A DNA stretch of 11,106 nt. Origin: Candidatus Heimdallarchaeota archaeon. Lineage in GTDB: Archaea; Asgardarchaeota; Heimdallarchaeia; Heimdallarchaeales; Kariarchaeaceae. The notes below the pieces were generated by a model. The model had not been told where the DNA came from, searched no databases, and worked only from the letters and a program-made list of their open reading frames with translations. The position numbers were made by a program, and so were the translations under genes. The DNA lies in contig WAKA01000106.1 in assembly GCA_015523565.1 (NCBI GenBank), forward strand, positions 1-11,106, given 5' to 3'. This document shows, in pieces, positions 326-11,106 of the stretch. Each line of letters begins with the position of its first letter. Position 1 is the first letter of the stretch.

Positions 326-380
326 TCAACATGTCGTAACAGGTAGTCCGAAGTTAAACCTGTCCAAATAGGTGAATATT

Positions 381-998
381 ATGCTTGACATGCTGCTCAA
401 AGTTGAGACGGAGATCCGGCAGACCATACGGAATGCACAAAACACTAGACAACTATTCAGGCACGAATCAGGAAGGCAATTGATGCTTTCCGAAGTCATG
501 GAACATGGTGTAACCGATGGACCAATTATTGGTGCATTGGCGATCTTTTATGCACCAGGACAATTCCTGACATTAGACAGGATCATTGCAAAGAATCAAC
601 AATTCAAGAAGCAAAGGCGCATTATTTACTATTTGGATTCCAGGACAGGACAAATCGGATCTACCTTGTTACTTGAGCTGTTGAAGATACAGGATGGAGA
701 AAAATTCAGCAAAGCGGAGTTTGTTCAAAAAATCGATAAGGATTACTTTGAGGACTTTACAGTATCATCAGGTGAAATCAATGAGGCGCTTTCACGAATG
801 TTCAGAAAGACAATGAAGAACTATTTTGGGATTAACGGTCGATTTTTCTCAAGGAAACCATTCTCAATTTATTTCAGGAAAATAAAGGTTGGAAAGAACA
901 CGTTCGACAAGAATGCTTATGAAATGAGAAAGCATGAAATTGACCATCAAGTCAACCAATTTATCAACAAGTTAAATGCAACTTTTTCGAAATCATAA
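381..998 (+). CDS. Hypothetical protein, possible C-terminal winged helix-turn-helix (OmpR/PhoB-type-like) DNA-binding domain
   Basis: ORF 372..998. ATG at 381 is preferred because GGTGA (371-375) sits 5 nt upstream. LLLELLKIQDGEKFSKAEFVQKI...VSSGEINEALSRMFRK resembles the three helices of a winged HTH and is followed by a basic beta-rich segment. The CDS is confident; the domain call is tentative. Confidence 0.75.
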   Translation: MLDMLLKVETEIRQTIRNAQNTRQLFRHESGRQLMLSEVMEHGVTDGPIIGALAIFYAPGQFLTLDRIIAKNQQFKKQRRIIYYLDSRTGQIGSTLLLELLKIQDGEKFSKAEFVQKIDKDYFEDFTVSSGEINEALSRMFRKTMKNYFGINGRFFSRKPFSIYFRKIKVGKNTFDKNAYEMRKHEIDHQVNQFINKLNATFSKS

Positions 999-1028: not shown

Positions 1029-1056
1029 GTGTCTTGATTCAGACACATTTTTATTT
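1029..1056 (+). terminator. Possible terminator of the 381..998 gene, or promoter element for the GTPase
   Basis: GTGTCT(1029-1034)-6 nt-AGACAC(1041-1046) followed by ATTTTTATTT. Confidence 0.3.
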
Positions 1057-1096
1057 ACTCTCTCATAAATTATTGTAAAAGAGGAATGGTCAATAT

Positions 1097-2032
1097 ATGA
1101 GTGGAAAGCAATTTGTATTCAAAATTTTATTGACAGGTGATGGAGCGGTTGGTAAAACCTCTATCAGGGAACGGTACATGGGTAAAGGATTTACAGGAAG
1201 TTACTTGAAGACGATTGGTGCGGATTTTGCTTCAAAAAAAGTGCAATTTGGAGAGAATAGGGTCACCTACCAGATTTTTGACTTGGCAGGTCAGGATGCA
1301 TATGTTACTGCCCGTAAATCATTTTATAAGGGCGGGCAGGCGGCATTCCTTGTCTTTGACGTTCAAGATCCACAGACATTGACAAATTTAAGCCAATGGG
1401 TTGATGATTGCATAAATAATTCTGAAGGAACTGTCCAGACATTCATTATCTTAGGAAACAAGGCAGATTTGGTTGAGACTAGGCAAGTTTCCAATGAAAT
1501 GGCTGTTGAATTCATCCAACAATTGGTTGCAAAGACAGGTCTTACATTCTATTATATGGAAACCTCTGCAAAAACAGGAATGAATATCGACTTGGCATTC
1601 CAATTAATGGGGCAAAGGTTGCTGAAAAAGCATAATATTGACATAGAAGTTGAACTTCCTGACTCGGTCTATGAGATTGGTCCAGGTATGGGAAGCGGCA
1701 ATGTTGAAAAGGAAGTTGCAGAAGCTGTTGAGACAGTGGTACAAGCTTCAGATGCGTTGATTGGAGGAATTTATACAGAATCTGGCAAACTGAATGCAAA
1801 AGTTGAGCAATTGGAAAAAGCGGTGTTGAAATTGGCAAAGAAAACAGATTTGATTGACAAGAAACTGACAAAATTGGTAATGATTGTCAAGGGAATTGTG
1901 GCAGGGGAAAGAAAAGGAGATTTAGAAGGGCTAGATCAACCAACAAAAGTCGAGATAGAGGAAGAGGATGAAGCGGCAATCAAAGCCCAAAAACAAAAAG
2001 AGTTTGGAGTTCCACCCATCCCCAAGAAATAA
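1097..2032 (+). CDS. Ras-superfamily (Rab-like) small GTPase with C-terminal coiled-coil extension
   Basis: G1 GDGAVGKTS, G2/switch I YLKTIGADF, G3 DLAGQ, SFYKGG and LVFDV (RabF4/F5-like), G4 NKAD, G5 ETSAK. A tail of about 130 aa has a heptad repeat and no C-terminal Cys prenylation motif. GAGGA lies at 1081-1085. Confidence 0.95.
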   Translation: MSGKQFVFKILLTGDGAVGKTSIRERYMGKGFTGSYLKTIGADFASKKVQFGENRVTYQIFDLAGQDAYVTARKSFYKGGQAAFLVFDVQDPQTLTNLSQWVDDCINNSEGTVQTFIILGNKADLVETRQVSNEMAVEFIQQLVAKTGLTFYYMETSAKTGMNIDLAFQLMGQRLLKKHNIDIEVELPDSVYEIGPGMGSGNVEKEVAEAVETVVQASDALIGGIYTESGKLNAKVEQLEKAVLKLAKKTDLIDKKLTKLVMIVKGIVAGERKGDLEGLDQPTKVEIEEEDEAAIKAQKQKEFGVPPIPKK

Positions 2033-2857: not shown

Positions 2858-3613
2858 TTAGATTCCGAATTTTAAGCGGGCACCAAGTTCTTCAGGCAAG
2901 TGGCATTGGTGAACTTCCTCAATAACCTCCTCAATATTGTAAGAGACACGCAAAAGCTCTGTTTTTTTATTTTTTAAGTCAATAATGGCATATGCCGCCC
3001 TAAAATCATTGTCTCTTGGTTGACCGATAGAACCAGGATTTACAAATATCTTGCCTGTGGCAGAATGATGCTCTCCTTGTATGTGTGAATGCCCTACAAA
3101 AAGATAATCCGTTTTTGTGGCGGCAAGGGCATTTTCGATTGATTCAATGAACAGATTGGTTGTGGGACCGTAAACATAGTCAAAAATAGTGACAGGATGC
3201 CCATGAACCAAGGTTGCATTTCCATATGGAGTTTCCAATATGGTTTTCAAGGGGAGGTGCAACAGGAATTTTTTATGATCTTCACTGAGTAGGGGATTGG
3301 TAAATTTAAGACTTGCTTGGGCCGCAGGTCGAGCAATCTTGAATAGTGGGTTTGAAAGATCAACTGCGGCCCAGTCATGGTTTCCCATGACAGATATGTC
3401 AATCATTGGACGAACCGTGTTCAGAACCTCAACAGGACGGGTATAATATCCAACAAGATCACCTAGATTGATTACAGCGTCAAAATCTCTTTTTTCCATG
3501 TCTTCAATGACTGCCATAAGGGCAGGGTAATTAGAATGAATATCCGCAATGAGTGCAATTCGTTCATAATCCCGTTGTTCAACAGTCACCTCAAAAAGGG
3601 CTTCGTCATCCAT
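2858..3613 (-). CDS. Calcineurin-like metallophosphoesterase (Metallophos_2 / PPP-like, MJ0912-type)
   Basis: All metal-binding motifs are intact: DIHSN, GDLVGY, GNHD, HG, GHSH. The family signature NPGSIGQPRD is present. Confidence 0.93.
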   Translation of the reverse strand: MDDEALFEVTVEQRDYERIALIADIHSNYPALMAVIEDMEKRDFDAVINLGDLVGYYTRPVEVLNTVRPMIDISVMGNHDWAAVDLSNPLFKIARPAAQASLKFTNPLLSEDHKKFLLHLPLKTILETPYGNATLVHGHPVTIFDYVYGPTTNLFIESIENALAATKTDYLFVGHSHIQGEHHSATGKIFVNPGSIGQPRDNDFRAAYAIIDLKNKKTELLRVSYNIEEVIEEVHQCHLPEELGARLKFGI

Positions 3614-3625
3614 TTATATTTCAAA

Positions 3626-3646
3626 CTAGAATTCTAGATTTATTAA
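3626..3646 (-). promoter_or_regulatory. TATA-like box plus perfect 12-bp palindrome CTAGAATTCTAG upstream of the phosphoesterase
   Basis: TTAATAAA on the minus strand at 3646-3639, 26-33 nt before ATG 3613. The palindrome spans 3626-3637. Confidence 0.4.
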
Positions 3647-3659
3647 GGTTGGGGAATCT

Positions 3660-4421
3660 TTATTCATCTGAAAAAGAAAGGGTGAGTAAAATAACAGAAA
3701 CAAGTGAGATAAATGAGAGGAAAGTGAAAATTGCAAGGTCATATTCTTCCTGAATTGTGACATTGTCTGAAAATCCCAGATACATTCGCCAAAAGAGAAG
3801 GGTTCCAAAAGTGATTAAAATTGCCATGGAAATTGTTAAAGCAACAATCCTTAGATAAAACGATATCAGGACATTCCGTTCAATGTTAATATTTTGCCTT
3901 GCAATATCAAATTCAGTGAATTTTAGTCTGTCAATAAATCCCTCATATAATTTTTGTGCTTTTTCTGTTTGGGGAACCATTGAAAACGTATCACTGTCAC
4001 CTTTAGTGGAAAGGTAGAAGAGAAACACAAAGTATGCCAAAACAGACACCCAGATGACATCCAACAGCAATATTTCAAAAGGAATTTGCGTAAATGGATT
4101 CTGGGTCAAAGGAAAGCGGATACCTGAAAAATATTGTTCAACACTGGACACCATAGTCAAGAAAAAGACAAAAAGAAGCATCTGGGATCTTGAAATGAGA
4201 CTGAATTCCTTAAAATTGCCATTGAGAATTAAAAGAGCCAAAAGCAGGAGTGTGAAAATTTGAGTAATTTTGAACCCAAACTGGAGAATTAGGGAGACAA
4301 TAACCAATACCGACAAAAGGCGGTTCATTAGGGAAGAGAAAAAGAAGTGTTTGGGATTGGAGAAGATAAATCCCAGTTCATAAAAGACATCGTTTTCATC
4401 CATTTTTTGCATAGTCACCAT
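3660..4421 (-). CDS. Polytopic membrane protein of unknown function (about 6 TM)
   Basis: 253-aa ORF with multiple long hydrophobic segments. It overlaps the DUF58 stop, suggesting translational coupling. The start could also be ATG 4412 or 4403. Confidence 0.8.
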   Translation of the reverse strand: MVTMQKMDENDVFYELGFIFSNPKHFFFSSLMNRLLSVLVIVSLILQFGFKITQIFTLLLLALLILNGNFKEFSLISRSQMLLFVFFLTMVSSVEQYFSGIRFPLTQNPFTQIPFEILLLDVIWVSVLAYFVFLFYLSTKGDSDTFSMVPQTEKAQKLYEGFIDRLKFTEFDIARQNINIERNVLISFYLRIVALTISMAILITFGTLLFWRMYLGFSDNVTIQEEYDLAIFTFLSFISLVSVILLTLSFSDE

Positions 4422-5758
4422 CTCCTAAAAGCATTTTTCATTGCCCGATCCAGCACATCCACGATGGTTTCTTTTTCATTTTGGATATATGCATAAACCG
4501 CATTGAATCGTTTCATTTCTTGGCTGACATAAATTCCTCTAAAAACTTCATCAAAGATGATGTTGTTTGCTATGATGTTTTGGAGGATTTTTCCGTACTC
4601 TTCACCAGTATATGTTTTTGCCACATCAGTCAATCGTTTACGATAGGAAAAGTCAAATCCACGGACATCGACAAAAATCAGGTTGTTTTTCATCATGACA
4701 ATCTTTCTTAATAGGTTAAGGAATTGGCTGACGTTGTATTCCAAATCACCTATAAATATAAATAGCTTGTTTGTGATTTTTTCCTTTTCCAAAGTTTTGG
4801 CAAGAACATTGAAGTTTACATAGACGTCCTTTGCTGTTTCACTGTAAATTTCGCCCCAGATACGCAATTGTTGTTTCCTGCTTTTGGAGGGTTTGAAATA
4901 GAATTTCACATCGGTATCGAAAAAGAGGAAACCAACAGGATGTCCCTGTTCCAATATTCCAGAATAAATATCCATTGCAGTTCCGAGGACAAAATCAAAT
5001 TTCTGCCCCCTCATTGTCGTTCCTCCCTGTAATGCCACGATAACTTCCAATTGTTTTTCATCTTCAAACTCCTTTGAAATGAGTTTGCCTCGTCTTGCAA
5101 CGGCGGGCCAATAGATGATTTTGGAGGGATCTCCTCGAATATATTCACGTAATCCATGGAAATCTTCACCCATACCTTTCCTTCTTATTGCATACACATC
5201 AGTGAGACGGGAAAAAACTTCCTTGACCCGCAACTCATTGACATGTGCTTCAAGCCTTTTGGGATAGATACGGACAGGAATGGATGGAATAGTCGCAAGA
5301 GGGGTGGCAAATACACCAAAAATATCCATTTGGTGTGCAGTGATTGGCGAAATCTCAAAGTATCCTCGTTTTAGGGGTAGCAGAGGAATGTTGATTGTTT
5401 TTGTCTGACCAGCGGACAGGGAAAGCATGACAACATTTGATTGATTGACAGGAAAGATATCAGGAGGAAGCGTGATTTTGATTTTGACGCTTGGCAAAGA
5501 TTTTGAGCTTTTGTTCGTTATTTTCAGTTGGATTACTTCCAATTCACCACGATATAAAATCCCATGTCTTGCCTTGCCTGTAAAGGTAACATCAATTTCA
5601 GGTAAAAAGGACAGATAGACCACATATGCCAAGAAGTAAAACACAAAGATGGAAACCATGGCAACAGAAAGGTATGACTGAAGAATGTTTCCAATAATAA
5701 GCAGTGCCATGCTTAGTGCAATAATTATTATGCCTCTAGCCGTAAGTGTTGTTTTCAT
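4415..5758 (-). CDS. DUF58 (COG1721) protein: N-terminal TM hairpin, Ig-like domain, vWA-like domain
   Basis: Signature GEDFHGLREYIRGDPSKIIYWPAVARRGKLISKEFEDE; Ig-like segment ...LKITNKS...PLKRGYFEISP...DIFG. Directly downstream of moxR, with a GTGAT RBS-like site. Confidence 0.92.
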   Translation of the reverse strand: MKTTLTARGIIIIALSMALLIIGNILQSYLSVAMVSIFVFYFLAYVVYLSFLPEIDVTFTGKARHGILYRGELEVIQLKITNKSSKSLPSVKIKITLPPDIFPVNQSNVVMLSLSAGQTKTINIPLLPLKRGYFEISPITAHQMDIFGVFATPLATIPSIPVRIYPKRLEAHVNELRVKEVFSRLTDVYAIRRKGMGEDFHGLREYIRGDPSKIIYWPAVARRGKLISKEFEDEKQLEVIVALQGGTTMRGQKFDFVLGTAMDIYSGILEQGHPVGFLFFDTDVKFYFKPSKSRKQQLRIWGEIYSETAKDVYVNFNVLAKTLEKEKITNKLFIFIGDLEYNVSQFLNLLRKIVMMKNNLIFVDVRGFDFSYRKRLTDVAKTYTGEEYGKILQNIIANNIIFDEVFRGIYVSQEMKRFNAVYAYIQNEKETIVDVLDRAMKNAFRRW

Positions 5759-5768
5759 TTTGGATCAC

Positions 5769-6710
5769 TTAGATGGCAACTTCAGATTCTTGAAGGATTC
5801 TGTTGACTAGATCCCTGATTTTGACACGGGCAAGTTCAGCCTCATGAGAAAGTACAAGTCTATGGTTAAGAACATCAAAGGCAATATATTTAATGTCATC
5901 AGGTTCAACAAAATCCCTTCCATTCACAGCTGCAGTTGCTTTCCCCAATTGCATGAGGGCAAGGCTTGCACGTGGAGACGCACCAAGTTCAATATTTCGG
6001 TTATTTCGTGTGTTTGTGACAATGTTGAGGATATAGTCAATAATCTCCTCAGATATGTCCACCTTTGGAATATATTGTTGGATTTCAATTATTTTTTCCC
6101 GATTTGTCAAGGTTTCCACTGAAGGGTTGAGATCATGATGTTTAAGCCAAAGCATTTTCTTTTCCACATCACGGGTCGGGAAATCGATAAGTAGTTTAAT
6201 CAGGAAACGATCCTGTTGTGCTTCAGGGAGGGGATAGACACCTGCATTTTCAAGAGGGTTCTGTGTCGCAATTACCAAGAAGGGAGTGTCCAATTTTCTT
6301 GCCATTCCCTCAACAGACACTTGACGTTCTTGCATTGCCTCCAAGAGGGCGGATTGGGTTTTTGGGGGACTTCGGTTTATTTCATCACATAAGAGAAAGT
6401 TTGTGAAAACAGGACCCTCCATGAATTCAAATTCCATGACTTTTTGATTGAACACATTGACACCAGTAATATCAGAGGGCATGAGATCAGGAGTGAATTG
6501 TATTCTGTTGAATTTTAGACCAAGGATTTCCGCCAAGGTAGAAGCTGCAAGTGTTTTTGCAAGTCCAGGATTCCCTTCCAGCAATACATGCCCATTTGCC
6601 CATAAAGCGATCAGGATTTTTTTCAAGTATGTTTCATACCCAACCAATCTTTTCTTTGCCTCTTTCATCACAGATTCAGTGATTTGCTTTACCTCTTGAG
6701 AATTTACCAT
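5769..6710 (-). CDS. moxR: MoxR-family AAA+ ATPase (MoxR proper subfamily)
   Basis: Walker A GNPGLAKT, RIQFTPDLMPSDITG, Walker B LLCDEINR, PPKTQSALLEAMQE, ATQNP, YPLPEAQQDRF, GASPRA. ATG 6710 (MVNSQEV) is preferred over 6749 because the extra 13 codons span a TATA box. Confidence 0.97.
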   Translation of the reverse strand: MVNSQEVKQITESVMKEAKKRLVGYETYLKKILIALWANGHVLLEGNPGLAKTLAASTLAEILGLKFNRIQFTPDLMPSDITGVNVFNQKVMEFEFMEGPVFTNFLLCDEINRSPPKTQSALLEAMQERQVSVEGMARKLDTPFLVIATQNPLENAGVYPLPEAQQDRFLIKLLIDFPTRDVEKKMLWLKHHDLNPSVETLTNREKIIEIQQYIPKVDISEEIIDYILNIVTNTRNNRNIELGASPRASLALMQLGKATAAVNGRDFVEPDDIKYIAFDVLNHRLVLSHEAELARVKIRDLVNRILQESEVAI

Positions 6711-6731
6711 ACATCCAAAACAATTTGAACA

Positions 6732-6740
6732 TATATATAA
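6732..6740 (-). promoter_or_regulatory. TATA box (TTATATATA) for the moxR-DUF58 transcription unit
   Basis: Lies 22-30 nt upstream of ATG 6710 within an 86-nt AT-rich gap. Confidence 0.55.
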
Positions 6741-6796
6741 CTCACTCATATAAGCAATATTTTTTCGAATTAAATTTCACTGAATTGAAAGGTGTT

Positions 6797-8110
6797 TCAG
6801 AGCCAGAGAGCCATATTTTCATAAATATATTGGTTTATTTTCTGGTTGATTTCCCAAAGGGTTGAAACAGAACTGATTTGTTCCAAGGGTCCATAAGTGT
6901 TTTCCAAGGTTTTACGGAACGAGGTATCATGGATTGTTTTTTCAATTTTATTGAGAAGAGACAAGTTTGCAGTATGCAAAAGTCGATCTCCCATGATCTC
7001 ATACAAGATGTAATATTCTGAAAGAATGCGTTCTGCCCGTGTTGGATTTGAGATGAAGTCAGACCTGGATTTTTTCTCCCGCCAGATTTTTTTCCATTTC
7101 TTCCGGAAGTTTTTCAATTTGCCATATTGGCTTAATGCAAGTGTAAAGCCAATAATTGCAGTAGTGAGTGCAAATCCCTGACCAGAGCTTATGCCAATCC
7201 AAGCACTGATAATCCATGATGTCAATCCAGTTAGACTGTTGAATTGTGGAGAAAGATGCGTTTCATCAAAAAGTATCTCTTCAGCATTGACAAGTGATGC
7301 CAGATAGCTTATAAGAAGAAGTGAAAAAATCGCATTTCCATAAACAAATTCTGTTTCCCCTATTTTCCCTTTTTTTTGCCAGTAGATATTCAAAGGAAGG
7401 GTAGCATCACCAAAAGCCACAACAAGACCCTTTTCATAAAATTTCAGGACACCAATTGGCAAAGGACCAATTTTGTCCGTACTGTCAATTTTATTGTCAT
7501 CATCGACATCCAAGAATGCCGATCCATTTTTTTCAGTATATAACACAGGGAAGGTTGTACCAACAAGAAAACCACTTAAGTCAACAACAGCAGTTGCACG
7601 GTTCAATTGGATGGGATTGATTGCAAATCCTTCAATTAGATTGGAAATAAAATGTTCAAATACCATTGGCTTATCAGGAGCATTTGTATAGAGAAGAGGA
7701 TTTGTTTCACGGATTACACCATCCATGTAGGTTATTCCGAATGTACCAGCCACTGTTCTTGCATTTCCAAAGTCCTCAAAAATAAGAAGTACACCGCCGT
7801 TTTTCACAAAAGTGTTATACATTTGCAATTCAGCAGAAGTATATTTTTTATCCGATCCGATTATAACTAGGATTTTTGTATCAGAATCACGAAGATACAA
7901 AGGAGAGATGATTATTCTTGATACAGAAAGATTGAGGACGGATTCGATGGAATCTGCAAATTTAGAGGCACCAAAATCGTCAATTCGCATTATTGAATTT
8001 TTTGGACTGTAAGTTACAGTCCTTATGTTTGCAATTGCCAATATGAGAATCAATATAATGAATAGGGCAATCAAACTACGTTTTGACAAAAAGAATTTAG
8101 GGGGTTTCAT
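6797..8110 (-). CDS. DUF4350 / GldG-IFT52 (GIFT)-like membrane-anchored surface protein
   Basis: N-terminal TM, GASKFA, VIIGSDKKYTSAELQMYNTFVKNGGVLLIFEDFG, KGLVVAFGDAT..N, ILFDETH, a C-terminal TM followed by a basic stretch. GAGGTG lies 7 nt before ATG 8110. Confidence 0.8.
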   Translation of the reverse strand: MKPPKFFLSKRSLIALFIILILILAIANIRTVTYSPKNSIMRIDDFGASKFADSIESVLNLSVSRIIISPLYLRDSDTKILVIIGSDKKYTSAELQMYNTFVKNGGVLLIFEDFGNARTVAGTFGITYMDGVIRETNPLLYTNAPDKPMVFEHFISNLIEGFAINPIQLNRATAVVDLSGFLVGTTFPVLYTEKNGSAFLDVDDDNKIDSTDKIGPLPIGVLKFYEKGLVVAFGDATLPLNIYWQKKGKIGETEFVYGNAIFSLLLISYLASLVNAEEILFDETHLSPQFNSLTGLTSWIISAWIGISSGQGFALTTAIIGFTLALSQYGKLKNFRKKWKKIWREKKSRSDFISNPTRAERILSEYYILYEIMGDRLLHTANLSLLNKIEKTIHDTSFRKTLENTYGPLEQISSVSTLWEINQKINQYIYENMALWL

Positions 8111-9284
8111 TGATTTCCACCTCTTCAATTAGGTCGTCATTTTTTGCAATCACTAGATTTTCCAAATCATTCAGCAATTGCAAGACATGCTGTTTTGTAA
8201 GTTCCTTTTTTCCATATCTTGCCAAATAGAAGGTTTCAACAATGTCCTCCAAGGCGGCATTATTGATCTCGCCTTTTTCAAAGTGTTTTTGGGCATGTTC
8301 AAGGGGAGTTTCACCAATTTCACGTTTCAGTTTTGTAAATTTGGAAAATGCATTGTCAATTTTGTGATACGTTTCGATTATAAGTTCACGAGGAGAGTAC
8401 AGATCCATATTTGATTTAGTCCACTCAACAATAACCCATAAATGATCTTTGAAATTAATCAGCCGTTTCATTCTTTCTCTTTTTCTTTTTATTTCCTGTT
8501 CGCTTTGTTGAGGAGAAATAACTGTTGCAGGTTTGTCTATTTCAAAGGACATAGTTGTTTTCTTAATGAACCTATCCTTGTCAAGCCTTGAAAGTGCAGA
8601 AGGCAAAAATCCAACTGCAAAAAACATGAAGACAATTGAGACAAAGAAAAGAAACTGACGTATCGTGAGTTGATAGTTAAATTTGATTCCGAACAAATTG
8701 ACATTAAAGGAAATTGTCTCATTTAGTTGAATTTGTGGCATGTATCTGGACTTTGCGGGCAATTTTGTAAAATTCAACCCATTAAATTGAAACCATGAAT
8801 TGTTTTTGGGTTGGTTTGTCTTGGTGGTATGTTGTTTTGACGGTACGGATGCCGTGATTTTAGGGCGAGAGAATTTGTTGGTTTTACTGAAGGATGGGGT
8901 GGTGCCAATTCCAGAAGGAAGTGTCGTTGGAAGTGTATAATCAGGGGCAGAAGGTTGTGAAAAGGAAAAATCAGGATTACCTGCATTTAATGAAGAAATA
9001 CCCCAGTTTTGACCGTTGTTACCATCAACATTGGGTAATGCATCTGCTGGAATTGTCGGTAATTTATCTGCTGGAACTGTAGGAAGTTGACCATACCCGT
9101 AGTTGTCACCAAGATTTTGCGGTGGAGAAAATGGCTTATTACTCTCTGTATCGTAAACTGGTTCTGGTTCATATTCATTGTTTCCTTCTGTTTCACTTCC
9201 TCCTTGGAAATAATAGAGTAAACTGAGAAGTAAAAAGAATAAGATAACTATAAAAATAGTTCTTTTTGCATTTCCATTAGACAT
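8097..9284 (-). CDS. DUF4129-domain membrane protein with long Pro/Ser/Thr/Asn-rich extracellular linker
   Basis: N-terminal TM, low-complexity region, second TM, then PRELIIETY...GETPLEH...TFYLARYG, typical of DUF4129. GGGGTGA RBS upstream; 8-nt overlap with the upstream gene. Confidence 0.8.
   Translation of the reverse strand: MSNGNAKRTIFIVILFFLLLSLLYYFQGGSETEGNNEYEPEPVYDTESNKPFSPPQNLGDNYGYGQLPTVPADKLPTIPADALPNVDGNNGQNWGISSLNAGNPDFSFSQPSAPDYTLPTTLPSGIGTTPSFSKTNKFSRPKITASVPSKQHTTKTNQPKNNSWFQFNGLNFTKLPAKSRYMPQIQLNETISFNVNLFGIKFNYQLTIRQFLFFVSIVFMFFAVGFLPSALSRLDKDRFIKKTTMSFEIDKPATVISPQQSEQEIKRKRERMKRLINFKDHLWVIVEWTKSNMDLYSPRELIIETYHKIDNAFSKFTKLKREIGETPLEHAQKHFEKGEINNAALEDIVETFYLARYGKKELTKQHVLQLLNDLENLVIAKNDDLIEEVEINETP
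9034..9081 (-). repeat. Two tandem 24-bp intragenic repeat units encoding the LPT[V/I]PAD repeat
   Basis: 9034-9057 and 9058-9081 match at 20 of 24 positions; the peptide reads QLPTVPADKLPTIPADALP. Confidence 0.75.
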
Positions 9285-9903
9285 TGTTAAATTTCACCCC
9301 TAATGCGAATCCCACAGAAGCAAAAATACTAAGAGGGATTAAGACCAATAGAGTAAATATGAGAAAAATCAACCCAATAATGAAAAAGAAAGGATCCCTC
9401 AATAATTCTTGAAGGAAATCACCTACTGGAATTAAGAAAAGAAGTATTGCCATAAAAGCAAGAAACAGATAAATGATTAAACGGAAAATTGTTTTCATCA
9501 TTTGTATCAATATGCCTTCAGATTTTGTTGGACCGTTAACAATTCCAACCAAAAAGCCTGCCAAGATCCAAGCAGAGACAATTGTGAACACTTTGAAGTT
9601 TTCGAAATTTTCAATGTAAATAAAGATCATAAAGGAGATAAGTCCGAAGAAAGGATAATAGAGAGGATTTATTGTAAGCAAAATGTCACTGATAGAAGTG
9701 AATAATGTATTTGAGGGCGCATTGAAGAAAGTCCCTGTAAAGGAAAAAATTATCCCCAGGCCAATTATAATTAATGGAAGCCTAAATGCAGTGATTTCAT
9801 CCTCCTTCGGACTATATATTGAAAATTTTTTCGAGGGGTTAATTTGTTTTGCCCGTTGAAATATTGATTTTTTTATTCCATGTGTTTCATAATCCTTACT
9901 CAT
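9277..9903 (-). CDS. Integral membrane protein of unknown function (about 5 TM)
   Basis: Highly hydrophobic ORF. ATG 9903 has GGAGG 8 nt upstream and an ATGA overlap with the upstream gene's stop. Confidence 0.85.
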   Translation of the reverse strand: MSKDYETHGIKKSIFQRAKQINPSKKFSIYSPKEDEITAFRLPLIIIGLGIIFSFTGTFFNAPSNTLFTSISDILLTINPLYYPFFGLISFMIFIYIENFENFKVFTIVSAWILAGFLVGIVNGPTKSEGILIQMMKTIFRLIIYLFLAFMAILLFLIPVGDFLQELLRDPFFFIIGLIFLIFTLLVLIPLSIFASVGFALGVKFNNV

Positions 9904-11106
9904 AACCAATCCTCCCTATTGATTGACACTTGTGGGACAAAATCCACCAAAGAGTACCATTGGGAGATGATGCCATAACCCAAAAATCCAAAAGCAAATA
10001 AGTTTGGAATCATCCAGAATTCTCTCAAATTAAAACCGATTACCATAAGAACATAAAAAGAAAGCATTCCCAAATAAGAGGTGACATATCTCGAAACAAT
10101 CAGAAATAAAGGCAAGTCATCCCTGTTGGATCCCCACACAAAAAGGAATATAGATGAAAAGAAGGAAAACAAGAAAATAAGAATGATATACAAAATTTGA
10201 AACAAAAAGGCAAAAACCCCATCCTTACTCTTTAAGATGATTTGAGCGTTTTCAAAATTGATTAACGTAATAAATCCAAGAGATAAGAAATTTAATAGGG
10301 AAATAGAGATCAAGATCGATAAAATTAGGTAGAAGAAATTTCCTTTTTGAAATGTAGCATACCCTTTTGTCGTAAGTGCCCGTTCAGGGATTGGAACCAA
10401 GGGGGATTTACATTTTGCACAGAGCCTCCACAATGGGTTCAATGTCTGCCCGCAGTGGGGGCAGGTCATAACGACGGTATATTTGCAATTGGAGCATTGT
10501 CTTGTTGGTTCGTCCCAAATTTTGCCACAACTTGGGCATTCAGGGATTTTTGCTTGTCGGAAGGTTGGGAGTTTGAAATTGAATTGGATATCGGAAATTA
10601 CATTGCAATTATAGCAAATTGGGGCATCGGATTTATTTGGCAGATACTTTTTGGCAGAATGACAGTTTTCGCAAATTTCTGCCTCAATATTAAAAGAGAA
10701 AAAGATTAAGGCAATAATGAGAAAGTCAAATATTGGCTGAACAATAAAATAAGAAACGGACATGATTATAAATTTTAAAAGAATTAAAGAAAGCAAGGTG
10801 ACAATGGAATATATTATGGCAGTGTTGATTTGTTTTTTTTGGGGGAGAAACAGACGACCGTCTTTAATGAAATATTGCGAAAAATATCCAGTTACAAACA
10901 AGACAGCAGGAAGAGAATTGAAAAGATATAATTGAATTTGTATGATTAAATTTAATGAATTAATGTCAAGATCAATGGGGATAAACATTGATTGGATCAG
11001 TGCCTTTGTGAATTCGGCATATTCAATAAAAGCAAAAAAAGAAATAGACATTCCTGCAAAAAAGTAGACAGTAAATGATGCGACTTGTTCAAATGAAGAT
11101 ATAAGG
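9900..11106 (-). CDS. Polytopic membrane protein with three zinc ribbons (double-zinc-ribbon-like); 5' end outside the window
   Basis: Six CxxC motifs (CENC, CYNC, CPSC, CSNC, CPHC, CAKC) sit between TM blocks. The frame stays open upstream of ATG 11051 to the window edge (LISSFEQVASFTVYFFAG-M), so the true start probably lies beyond 11106. Confidence 0.85.
   Translation of the reverse strand, partial: LISSFEQVASFTVYFFAGMSISFFAFIEYAEFTKALIQSMFIPIDLDINSLNLIIQIQLYLFNSLPAVLFVTGYFSQYFIKDGRLFLPQKKQINTAIIYSIVTLLSLILLKFIIMSVSYFIVQPIFDFLIIALIFFSFNIEAEICENCHSAKKYLPNKSDAPICYNCNVISDIQFNFKLPTFRQAKIPECPSCGKIWDEPTRQCSNCKYTVVMTCPHCGQTLNPLWRLCAKCKSPLVPIPERALTTKGYATFQKGNFFYLILSILISISLLNFLSLGFITLINFENAQIILKSKDGVFAFLFQILYIILIFLFSFFSSIFLFVWGSNRDDLPLFLIVSRYVTSYLGMLSFYVLMVIGFNLREFWMIPNLFAFGFLGYGIISQWYSLVDFVPQVSINREDWL

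Follow-up and report, generated by a model that had tools for sequence, protein, structure and literature searches.

How pre-eukaryotic Rab-like switches find their place in the cell is a question raised by the Rab-like proteins of the Loki and Thor archaea. These proteins are described as having no extension past the G domain and no membrane-association or localisation signal (Surkont and Pereira-Leal 2016, PMC4915359; Tran et al. 2024, PMC10933270), and it is because they stop right after the G domain that the question of positioning arises. The window analysed here, an 11,106-nucleotide stretch of a Heimdall-group Asgard genome, encodes at positions 1097..2032 of the forward strand (open reading frame list and translation; stop codon 2030-2032) a Rab/Ras-like GTPase of 311 amino acids that has a C-terminal extension. 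We propose that the extension would act as a protein-protein assembly module, composed of an ordered stretch after helix alpha5, a Gly-rich hinge and an amphipathic heptad helix.

The encoded protein is a small GTPase of the Ras superfamily, with a Ras fold and a complete set of G1-G5 motifs, among them GDGAVGKT (G1), DLAGQ with the catalytic Gln66 (G3), NKAD (G4) and TSAK (G5). Residues 9-175 (1121..1621, + strand) match the Pfam Ras family PF00071 with an E-value of 2.2e-39 (cut-off 21.6 bits), the Ras score being 135 bits versus 45 bits for Arf; Roc and Arf are weaker matches, and the protein also matches the NCBIfam model small_GTP. An AlphaFold2 model built from a 69-sequence alignment has a mean pLDDT of 81.7, with values mostly of 85-97 in the G domain. 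Its best solved matches in Foldseek are Rab8, Rab1, Rab7 and Rab9, with target TM scores of 0.8-0.85 and 30-37% identity over about 175 columns that span the G domain only. By eye, the segments IGADF, FYKGG and LVFDV resemble RabF1, RabF4 and RabF5, and according to Vargova et al. (10.1101/2024.02.28.582541) no Asgard sequences are specifically sister to Rabs. The named relatives are annotated as Heimdallarchaeota, Kariarchaeaceae and Heimdallarchaeaceae. The Rab-like GTPase of the original prediction is thus found at 1097-2032(+) with the sequence and the Pfam Ras match expected of it, and it appears to be a functional-looking Ras/Rab-type switch of Heimdall-group Asgard archaea.

The C-terminal Cys motif that is geranylgeranylated in eukaryotic Rabs is absent. 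The sole Cys of the 311-aa protein is C105, within the G domain, and there is none in residues 176-311; reading of the tail sequence also found no hydrophobic run long enough to span a membrane, so the earlier statement that the protein has neither a lipidation motif nor a transmembrane anchor holds. In the family tails, no terminal Cys occurs in the 2-6 residues past the helix, with the exception of the zinc-ribbon cysteines of the long P0113-type forms. With a conserved heptad helix standing at the place of the lipid anchor of eukaryotic Rabs, the tail points to placement of the switch by protein contacts and not by lipid.

The extension begins with the stretch directly after alpha5 (residues 176-200, 1622..1696, + strand; LLKKHNIDIEVELPDSVYEIGPG...), as delimited by the AlphaFold2 model and the family alignment, and this stretch ends in the Gly-rich GPGMGSG (residues 195-201, nt 1679-1699). 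AlphaFold2 gives pLDDT values of 94 for residues 181-190 and 84 for residues 191-200, with a short strand at 192-194, and because of this high confidence and the strand, residues 176-200 probably add an ordered, family-specific element to the Rab fold instead of a floppy connection. L175/L176 are invariant and N180 is at least 90% conserved in the tailed family, across the whole of which the pattern LLKKHN-I-D-V-x-V-x-LP-x-G-x-x-x-I-x-PG is conserved. The parts that follow differ in their reach. Helix A (residues 203-226, 1703..1774, + strand; NVEKEVAEAVETVVQASDALIGGI), defined from the family alignment and the model, and the hinge GGIYTESG after it are near-invariant and confined to the subclade of the window protein (P0001-P0009); helix A is modelled as continuous with the coil, at the low pLDDT of 53-61 for residues 201-230. 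The heptad helix comes next (residues 232-268, 1790..1900, + strand), with five heptads supported by register, shuffles, pLDDT and family conservation. An acidic linker (residues 269-302, 1901..2002, + strand; AGERKG...EIEEEDE...KQKE; pLDDT 58-67), likewise confined to the subclade and variable in sequence and length among P0001-P0009, leads to the short C-terminal motif FGVPPIPKK (residues 303-311, 2003..2029, + strand), identified in the family alignment. An ending of the type [ED/N]FG[VI]P..PKK lies at the extreme C terminus of all nine subclade members and is absent from the remaining family; it is kept despite the variable linker before it, and it looks like a short docking peptide.

The strict part of the heptad helix, LNAKVEQ...IVKGI, occupies 36 residues (232-267, nt 1790-1897). 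With L232, L239, L246, I253, L260 and I267 at d and V236, V243, T250, L257 and V264 at a, ten of the eleven a/d positions are LIVMF, T250 being the exception; such a score was reached by one shuffle in 1000 when the whole tail was permuted and one in 5000 for the segment, which bears out the five heptads of 4-3 spacing read earlier at 1790-1897. The hydrophobic moment is maximal at 104 degrees; the corresponding 3.46 residues per turn is the value of a heptad repeat and not the 3.6 of a plain helix. AlphaFold2 models a single helix over residues 203-268, with pLDDT values of 80-86 over 231-270. The tail therefore has both hydrophobic a/d positions and a predicted helix of at least four heptads. 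Complementary g/e' charges are also present in the tail helices: in the window protein the pairs K235-E240 and K249-D254 give two attractive and no repulsive contacts. The 66-residue helix was also considered as SNARE-like, a reading that was dropped because a membrane anchor and a conserved ionic zero layer are both absent; it is further weakened by the first half of the helix, which is subclade-specific and of low confidence.

It is formally conceivable that the C-terminal helix folds back on its own G domain, packing there in one nucleotide state and being released in the other, as in Ran. Residues 176-200, which are conserved and confidently modelled and include the strand at 192-194, would be in keeping with such an intramolecular switch, and the window protein has an acidic stretch after its helix, as does Ran after its C-terminal helix. 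However, the single long helix of the model shows no sign of packing on the G domain, a variable linker of 20-60 residues separates the helix from the G domain, and neither the heptads nor the g/e charge pattern would be needed for packing of this kind. We regard such a switch as very improbable.

The tail sets this protein apart within its own genome. The genome of the window (3.57 Mb, about 90% complete) encodes some 25 Ras-family/Rab-like paralogues, of which only this one has the tail, the others ending 8-15 residues past alpha5. One paralogue of the same genome (L012:1054-2037, contig C177) is instead extended ahead of its G domain, by about 150 charged, helical-looking residues; the gene after it encodes a methyl-accepting-chemotaxis-like membrane protein. 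In a FastTree phylogeny of G domains only, which took in 33 tailed proteins and 20 short paralogues of the window genome, a branch with an SH-like support of 99 separates the 33 tailed proteins, which have short branches, from the short paralogues. Part of this clustering is built in, since the tailed rows entered the tree as the top matches of the query, and the tree mainly shows one slowly evolving orthologue group that is distinct from the paralogues.

We searched 200 further genomes sampled from the phylum for matches with an E-value of 1e-40 or better. An orthologue is present in every sampled genome of the order to which the window belongs (6/6 in family f1, 22/22 in f2, 1/1 in f3 and 2/2 in f4), a sister family of the class has longer forms of 414-590 aa, and the other families searched gave almost nothing. 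The original prediction had staked itself on conservation of the tail in orthologues, and the helix is indeed found in register across an orthologue family that is Heimdallarchaeia-wide. Nearly all of the best 120 homologues (43-85% identity) have a variable linker followed by a heptad helix in the same register as that of the window protein. Among species representatives of the order, all 29 with a readable tail have the helix; in their best 28-residue windows, 6-8 of the 8 a/d positions are LIVMF, and in 25 of the 29 the protein ends 4-10 residues past the helix. Across the family the extension is 70-135 residues long. Over 112 distinct family helices, LIVMF residues occupy 92% of a and 82% of d positions, K/R accounts for 57% of g, and e is 28% D/E and 29% hydrophobic. 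The same 112 helices contain 145 attractive and 7 repulsive g -> e'(+5) pairs, a ratio that describes a conserved pattern and not independent events, because the family members are related. From these sequence comparisons, the tail is a real and conserved feature.

Some relatives have longer tails. The tails of P0033-P0037 and P0113-P0120 are lengthened by extra heptads, and P0113-P0116 and P0120 (412-437 aa) have a much longer coiled-coil and acidic tail that ends in a four-Cys zinc ribbon (CPKCG...YCYRCK). Frames of 414-590 aa in genomes G119, G187 and G196 belong with these sister-family versions. The four-Cys zinc-ribbon tail of the sister-family GTPases may be a further means of localising the same G domain without lipid.

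It is our preferred reading, with a probability of about 0.45, that the tail helix is a coiled coil, most simply a homodimer. A coiled coil is favoured by the basic g and acidic e flanks, the beta-branched residues at a, the Leu residues at d and the polar Thr layer, and also by the relatives whose tails gain length through extra heptads and resemble only generic coiled-coil families in Pfam. Basic residues at g with acidic residues at e are the classical signature of a parallel coil, unlike the flanks of lipid-binding helices. The heptad helix would then most likely form a short, parallel, in-register coiled coil, for which a homodimer would be the simplest case, given that beta-branched Val occupies a, that Leu occupies d and that one core layer holds a polar Thr. 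Two G domains on flexible linkers would be joined by such a coil, which, aided by the basic helix end and, in the subclade, by FGVPPIPKK, might bring the switch to where it acts with no need for prenylation. We infer the self-pairing, the dimeric state and the localising role of the helix from its sequence, and self-oligomerisation of the tailed GTPase is plausible. The suggestion that the protein is a tether is rejected because the coil is too short: the 36 aa of strict heptads would span about 5 nm, and with no more than 4-4.5 heptads in most relatives, the coil falls far short of tethering coils. With so few heptads, a stable isolated dimer would be marginal for most relatives. A complex prediction with two copies of residues 198-275 and the family alignment scored 0.10-0.11 relative to a mark of 0.42, a result that has no bearing on whether the helix pairs.

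The end of the helix complicates the picture of a homodimer. Its last two heptads combine basic residues with a wide hydrophobic face: hydrophobic residues extend to e and g, the net charge is +3 to +5, and it was overlooked in the original prediction that this basic amphipathic face scores as lipid-binding. Because of the hydrophobic e/g positions and the charge, these heptads would repel one another if paired as a parallel homodimer; they would be better accommodated in a wider bundle, in the groove of a partner or on a membrane. The basic C-terminal half of the helix could therefore lie flat on the anionic archaeal membrane and anchor the GTPase in place of the prenyl tail of a Rab. The position of the helix close to the C terminus in those 25 of 29 species representatives would suit this role, as would the absence of any other membrane signal from the protein and the membrane proteins encoded by neighbouring genes, and archaeal-type lipids are reported to be permissive for adsorption of amphipathic helices (bioRxiv 10.1101/2024.02.28.582541). 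Across members, the best 18-residue windows have hydrophobic moments of 0.4-0.65 and net charges of +3 to +5, and a Heliquest-type discriminant (threshold 1.34), which is dominated by charge and not specific, is 1.73 in the window protein and above 1.34 in most members, compared with 0.93 for the GCN4 zipper. Against membrane binding, the conserved part of the helix is 28-36 residues long with a period of 3.46, its N-terminal half is acidic, the e flank of the hydrophobic stripe is acidic and not basic, and aromatic residues are rare, one Phe aside. Moreover, in the subclade of the window protein the strongly acidic linker comes after the helix, which therefore does not sit at the terminus. 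On this balance we consider a membrane-binding helix unlikely.

The genes around the GTPase bear on whether the heptad helix might instead pair with a different protein. Directly upstream, at 372..998 on the + strand, is a gene for a protein of about 205-208 aa that has no Pfam or NCBIfam match and a core that is weakly winged-helix-like, flanked by terminal helices. It occupies the same position in L031, L032, L034 and L070, orthologous loci with GTPase identities of 58-85%, and is two genes away in L037. The ~205-aa family has 51 homologues, every named member of which is from the Heimdall group, and many invariant residues, for example RRII..LDS and GEI.E..SRMFRKT. Its AlphaFold2 model has a pLDDT of 79.6. 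Foldseek found no match to it at an E-value of 0.001 or better, and an OmpR/PhoB-type winged-helix fold (VIA-align Z 4-6) was too weak a resemblance to be named; no roadblock or longin regulator appeared among the fold matches.

In Heimdallarchaeaceae-type (f2) genomes, the GTPase orthologue instead follows a different, coiled-coil protein of 229-243 aa and faces a zinc-ribbon membrane protein. On the other side of the GTPase in the window is a convergent gene for a 265-aa protein (2037-2834, - strand), without a Pfam match, whose stop codon is 4 bp from that of the GTPase; homologues with 29-34% identity stand at the same position in L032 and L034. Beyond it, Pfam identifies a series on the - strand at 2858..11106 that comprises a metallophosphoesterase, a transmembrane protein, DUF58, a MoxR AAA+ ATPase, DUF4350, DUF4129, a second transmembrane protein and a zinc-ribbon (DZR) membrane protein. 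This MoxR/DUF58 cluster adjoins the GTPase orthologue in two families of the order (f1 and f4), at L032/L033, L034 = L070, L038/L039 = L071 and L072 and partly at L031, and its adjacency is kept through inversions: in the window it runs convergently to the GTPase gene, whereas in L034/L070, L038/L071 and L072 both point the same way. In some genomes it forms a co-directional string of ten genes in which the GTPase gene is the last. It is not adjacent to the GTPase in f2 or f6 genomes.

This neighbourhood suggests candidates for a docking partner, firmly naming none. The heptad helix might zip onto a helix of another protein and so recruit the GTPase to a complex, the candidates being the upstream 205-aa protein encoded at 381-995, the Heimdallarchaeaceae coiled-coil protein and the cytosolic part of the MoxR/DUF58/DUF4350/DUF4129/DZR cluster. 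Pairing with a partner is hinted at by the coiled-coil protein gene that precedes the Heimdallarchaeaceae orthologue, which in L035/L036 is flanked by the DZR membrane protein and the 229-243-aa protein, and would also be in keeping with the conserved upstream neighbour and its free-looking terminal helices, with a MoxR cluster that keeps adjoining the GTPase through several rearrangements in f1 and f4, and with the hydrophobic e/g residues at the helix end, which suit a three- or four-helix bundle. Yet the neighbours vary by clade. The 205-aa family is linked to the GTPase in f1 and f4-like loci and is present in f2 genomes at unlinked positions, whereas for the coiled-coil protein the window genome offers no more than an unlinked homologue with 26% identity. 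A 250-aa coiled-coil protein is encoded on contig C213 of the window genome (L091:12972-13721). The two upstream families have no detectable homology to each other, and when the profile of the ~205-aa family was set against the proteins encoded upstream in L035 and L038, no relation emerged. In the 205-aa protein, the C-terminal helix reaches pLDDT 81-95 along with its core in the model and is thus probably not free. Between this gene and the GTPase gene, a pattern scan found a terminator-like hairpin (1029-1046) and a T/A-rich, TATA-like run (together 1029..1058, + strand; a consensus match only), and the two genes may be separate transcription units. Docking onto a partner of this kind is conceivable and, in our judgement, somewhat unlikely.

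Searches with the tail itself returned little from outside the family. When the tail (residues 176-311) was compared with 1.8 billion representative proteins, two weak matches to long coiled-coil proteins were obtained and no separate domain elsewhere; this blank carries little weight, because the representatives of the family itself were not returned either. An ESM Atlas feature search with residues 196-311 gave no usable match, a PDB sequence search with the tail gave nothing below E 0.6, and Pfam searches of the family tails gave only sub-threshold, generic coiled-coil families, with one exception. The exception, a match of the tail of one relative to UPF0184 (23.4 versus 21.5 bits), was read as compositional similarity and not homology.

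We return to the coiled coil, which can be extended into a fuller model. A parallel dimeric coil, its basic amphipathic end and FGVPPIPKK would dock a pair of G domains on the membrane beside a complex of the MoxR, DUF58, DUF4350, DUF4129 and zinc-ribbon proteins, the GTP cycle would control the complex, and the tail would be the archaeal counterpart of the hypervariable region and lipid anchor of Rabs. The whole of this model is quite unlikely to be correct. If it were true that a dimer docks on the membrane in this way, lipid-independent localising of a Rab-like switch would extend across the sampled Heimdall-group order. The tailed family is a concrete object for experiments on how Rab-like GTPases are positioned independently of lipid, and the conserved neighbourhoods yield a short list of candidate partners.

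The architecture can be set beside several known systems. [quoted passage not shown] Our literature searches found no description of this architecture in archaea. ARL13/ARL13B shares the order of its parts with the window GTPase, and the parts of ARL13 outside the G domain direct its localisation. In contrast, the G domain of ARL13 belongs to the Arf family and the protein is eukaryotic and much longer, whereas the G domain of the window protein is, by its sequence, Ras/Rab-like and not of the Arf family that an ARL13-type architecture would have. Because the G-domain families differ, ARL13 would be a convergent analogue and not a relative. In the large Rabs, Rab44, Rab45/RASEF and Rab46/CRACR2A, an EF-hand and a coiled coil precede the Rab domain (PMC7645795, PMC8303950), and the original prediction had correctly placed the coil on the N-terminal side. 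They share a Rab-type G domain and a coiled coil with the window protein, in which, however, the coil is C-terminal, there is no Cys tail, Pfam finds no EF-hand and the G domain begins at residue 9; the difference in domain order means that the label of large Rab does not apply.

Rag/Gtr GTPases have a C-terminal roadblock domain that pairs two G domains, and septins, a different class of GTPase, form filaments and are paired through their C-terminal parts. Both embody the same working idea of a C-terminal element that unites two G domains; no homology of the window tail to Rag/Gtr or septin tails was found in protein, PDB or Pfam searches. The C-terminal helices of MinD and FtsA and the N-terminal helix of Arf are 10-18 residues long and basic on both flanks. 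The MinD/FtsA type likewise combines a basic amphipathic helix with a nucleotide switch and no lipid modification. The tail of the window protein shares with it the positive charge and the high moment, whereas a length of 28-36 residues with heptad periodicity, the acidic e flank and first half, and the non-terminal position do not fit.

The Asgard Rab-like/RasL proteins, such as the Thorarchaeota Rab of PDB 7EZB, resemble the window GTPase in having complete G1-G5 motifs, a catalytic Gln and no prenylatable Cys. New in the window are the helix before the coil, the conserved FGVPPIPKK end, a different upstream neighbour and the nearby MoxR/DUF58 membrane cluster. In contrast to the Loki and Thor Rab-like proteins, the family of the window GTPase continues past the G domain for 70-135 residues and carries a conserved heptad helix there.
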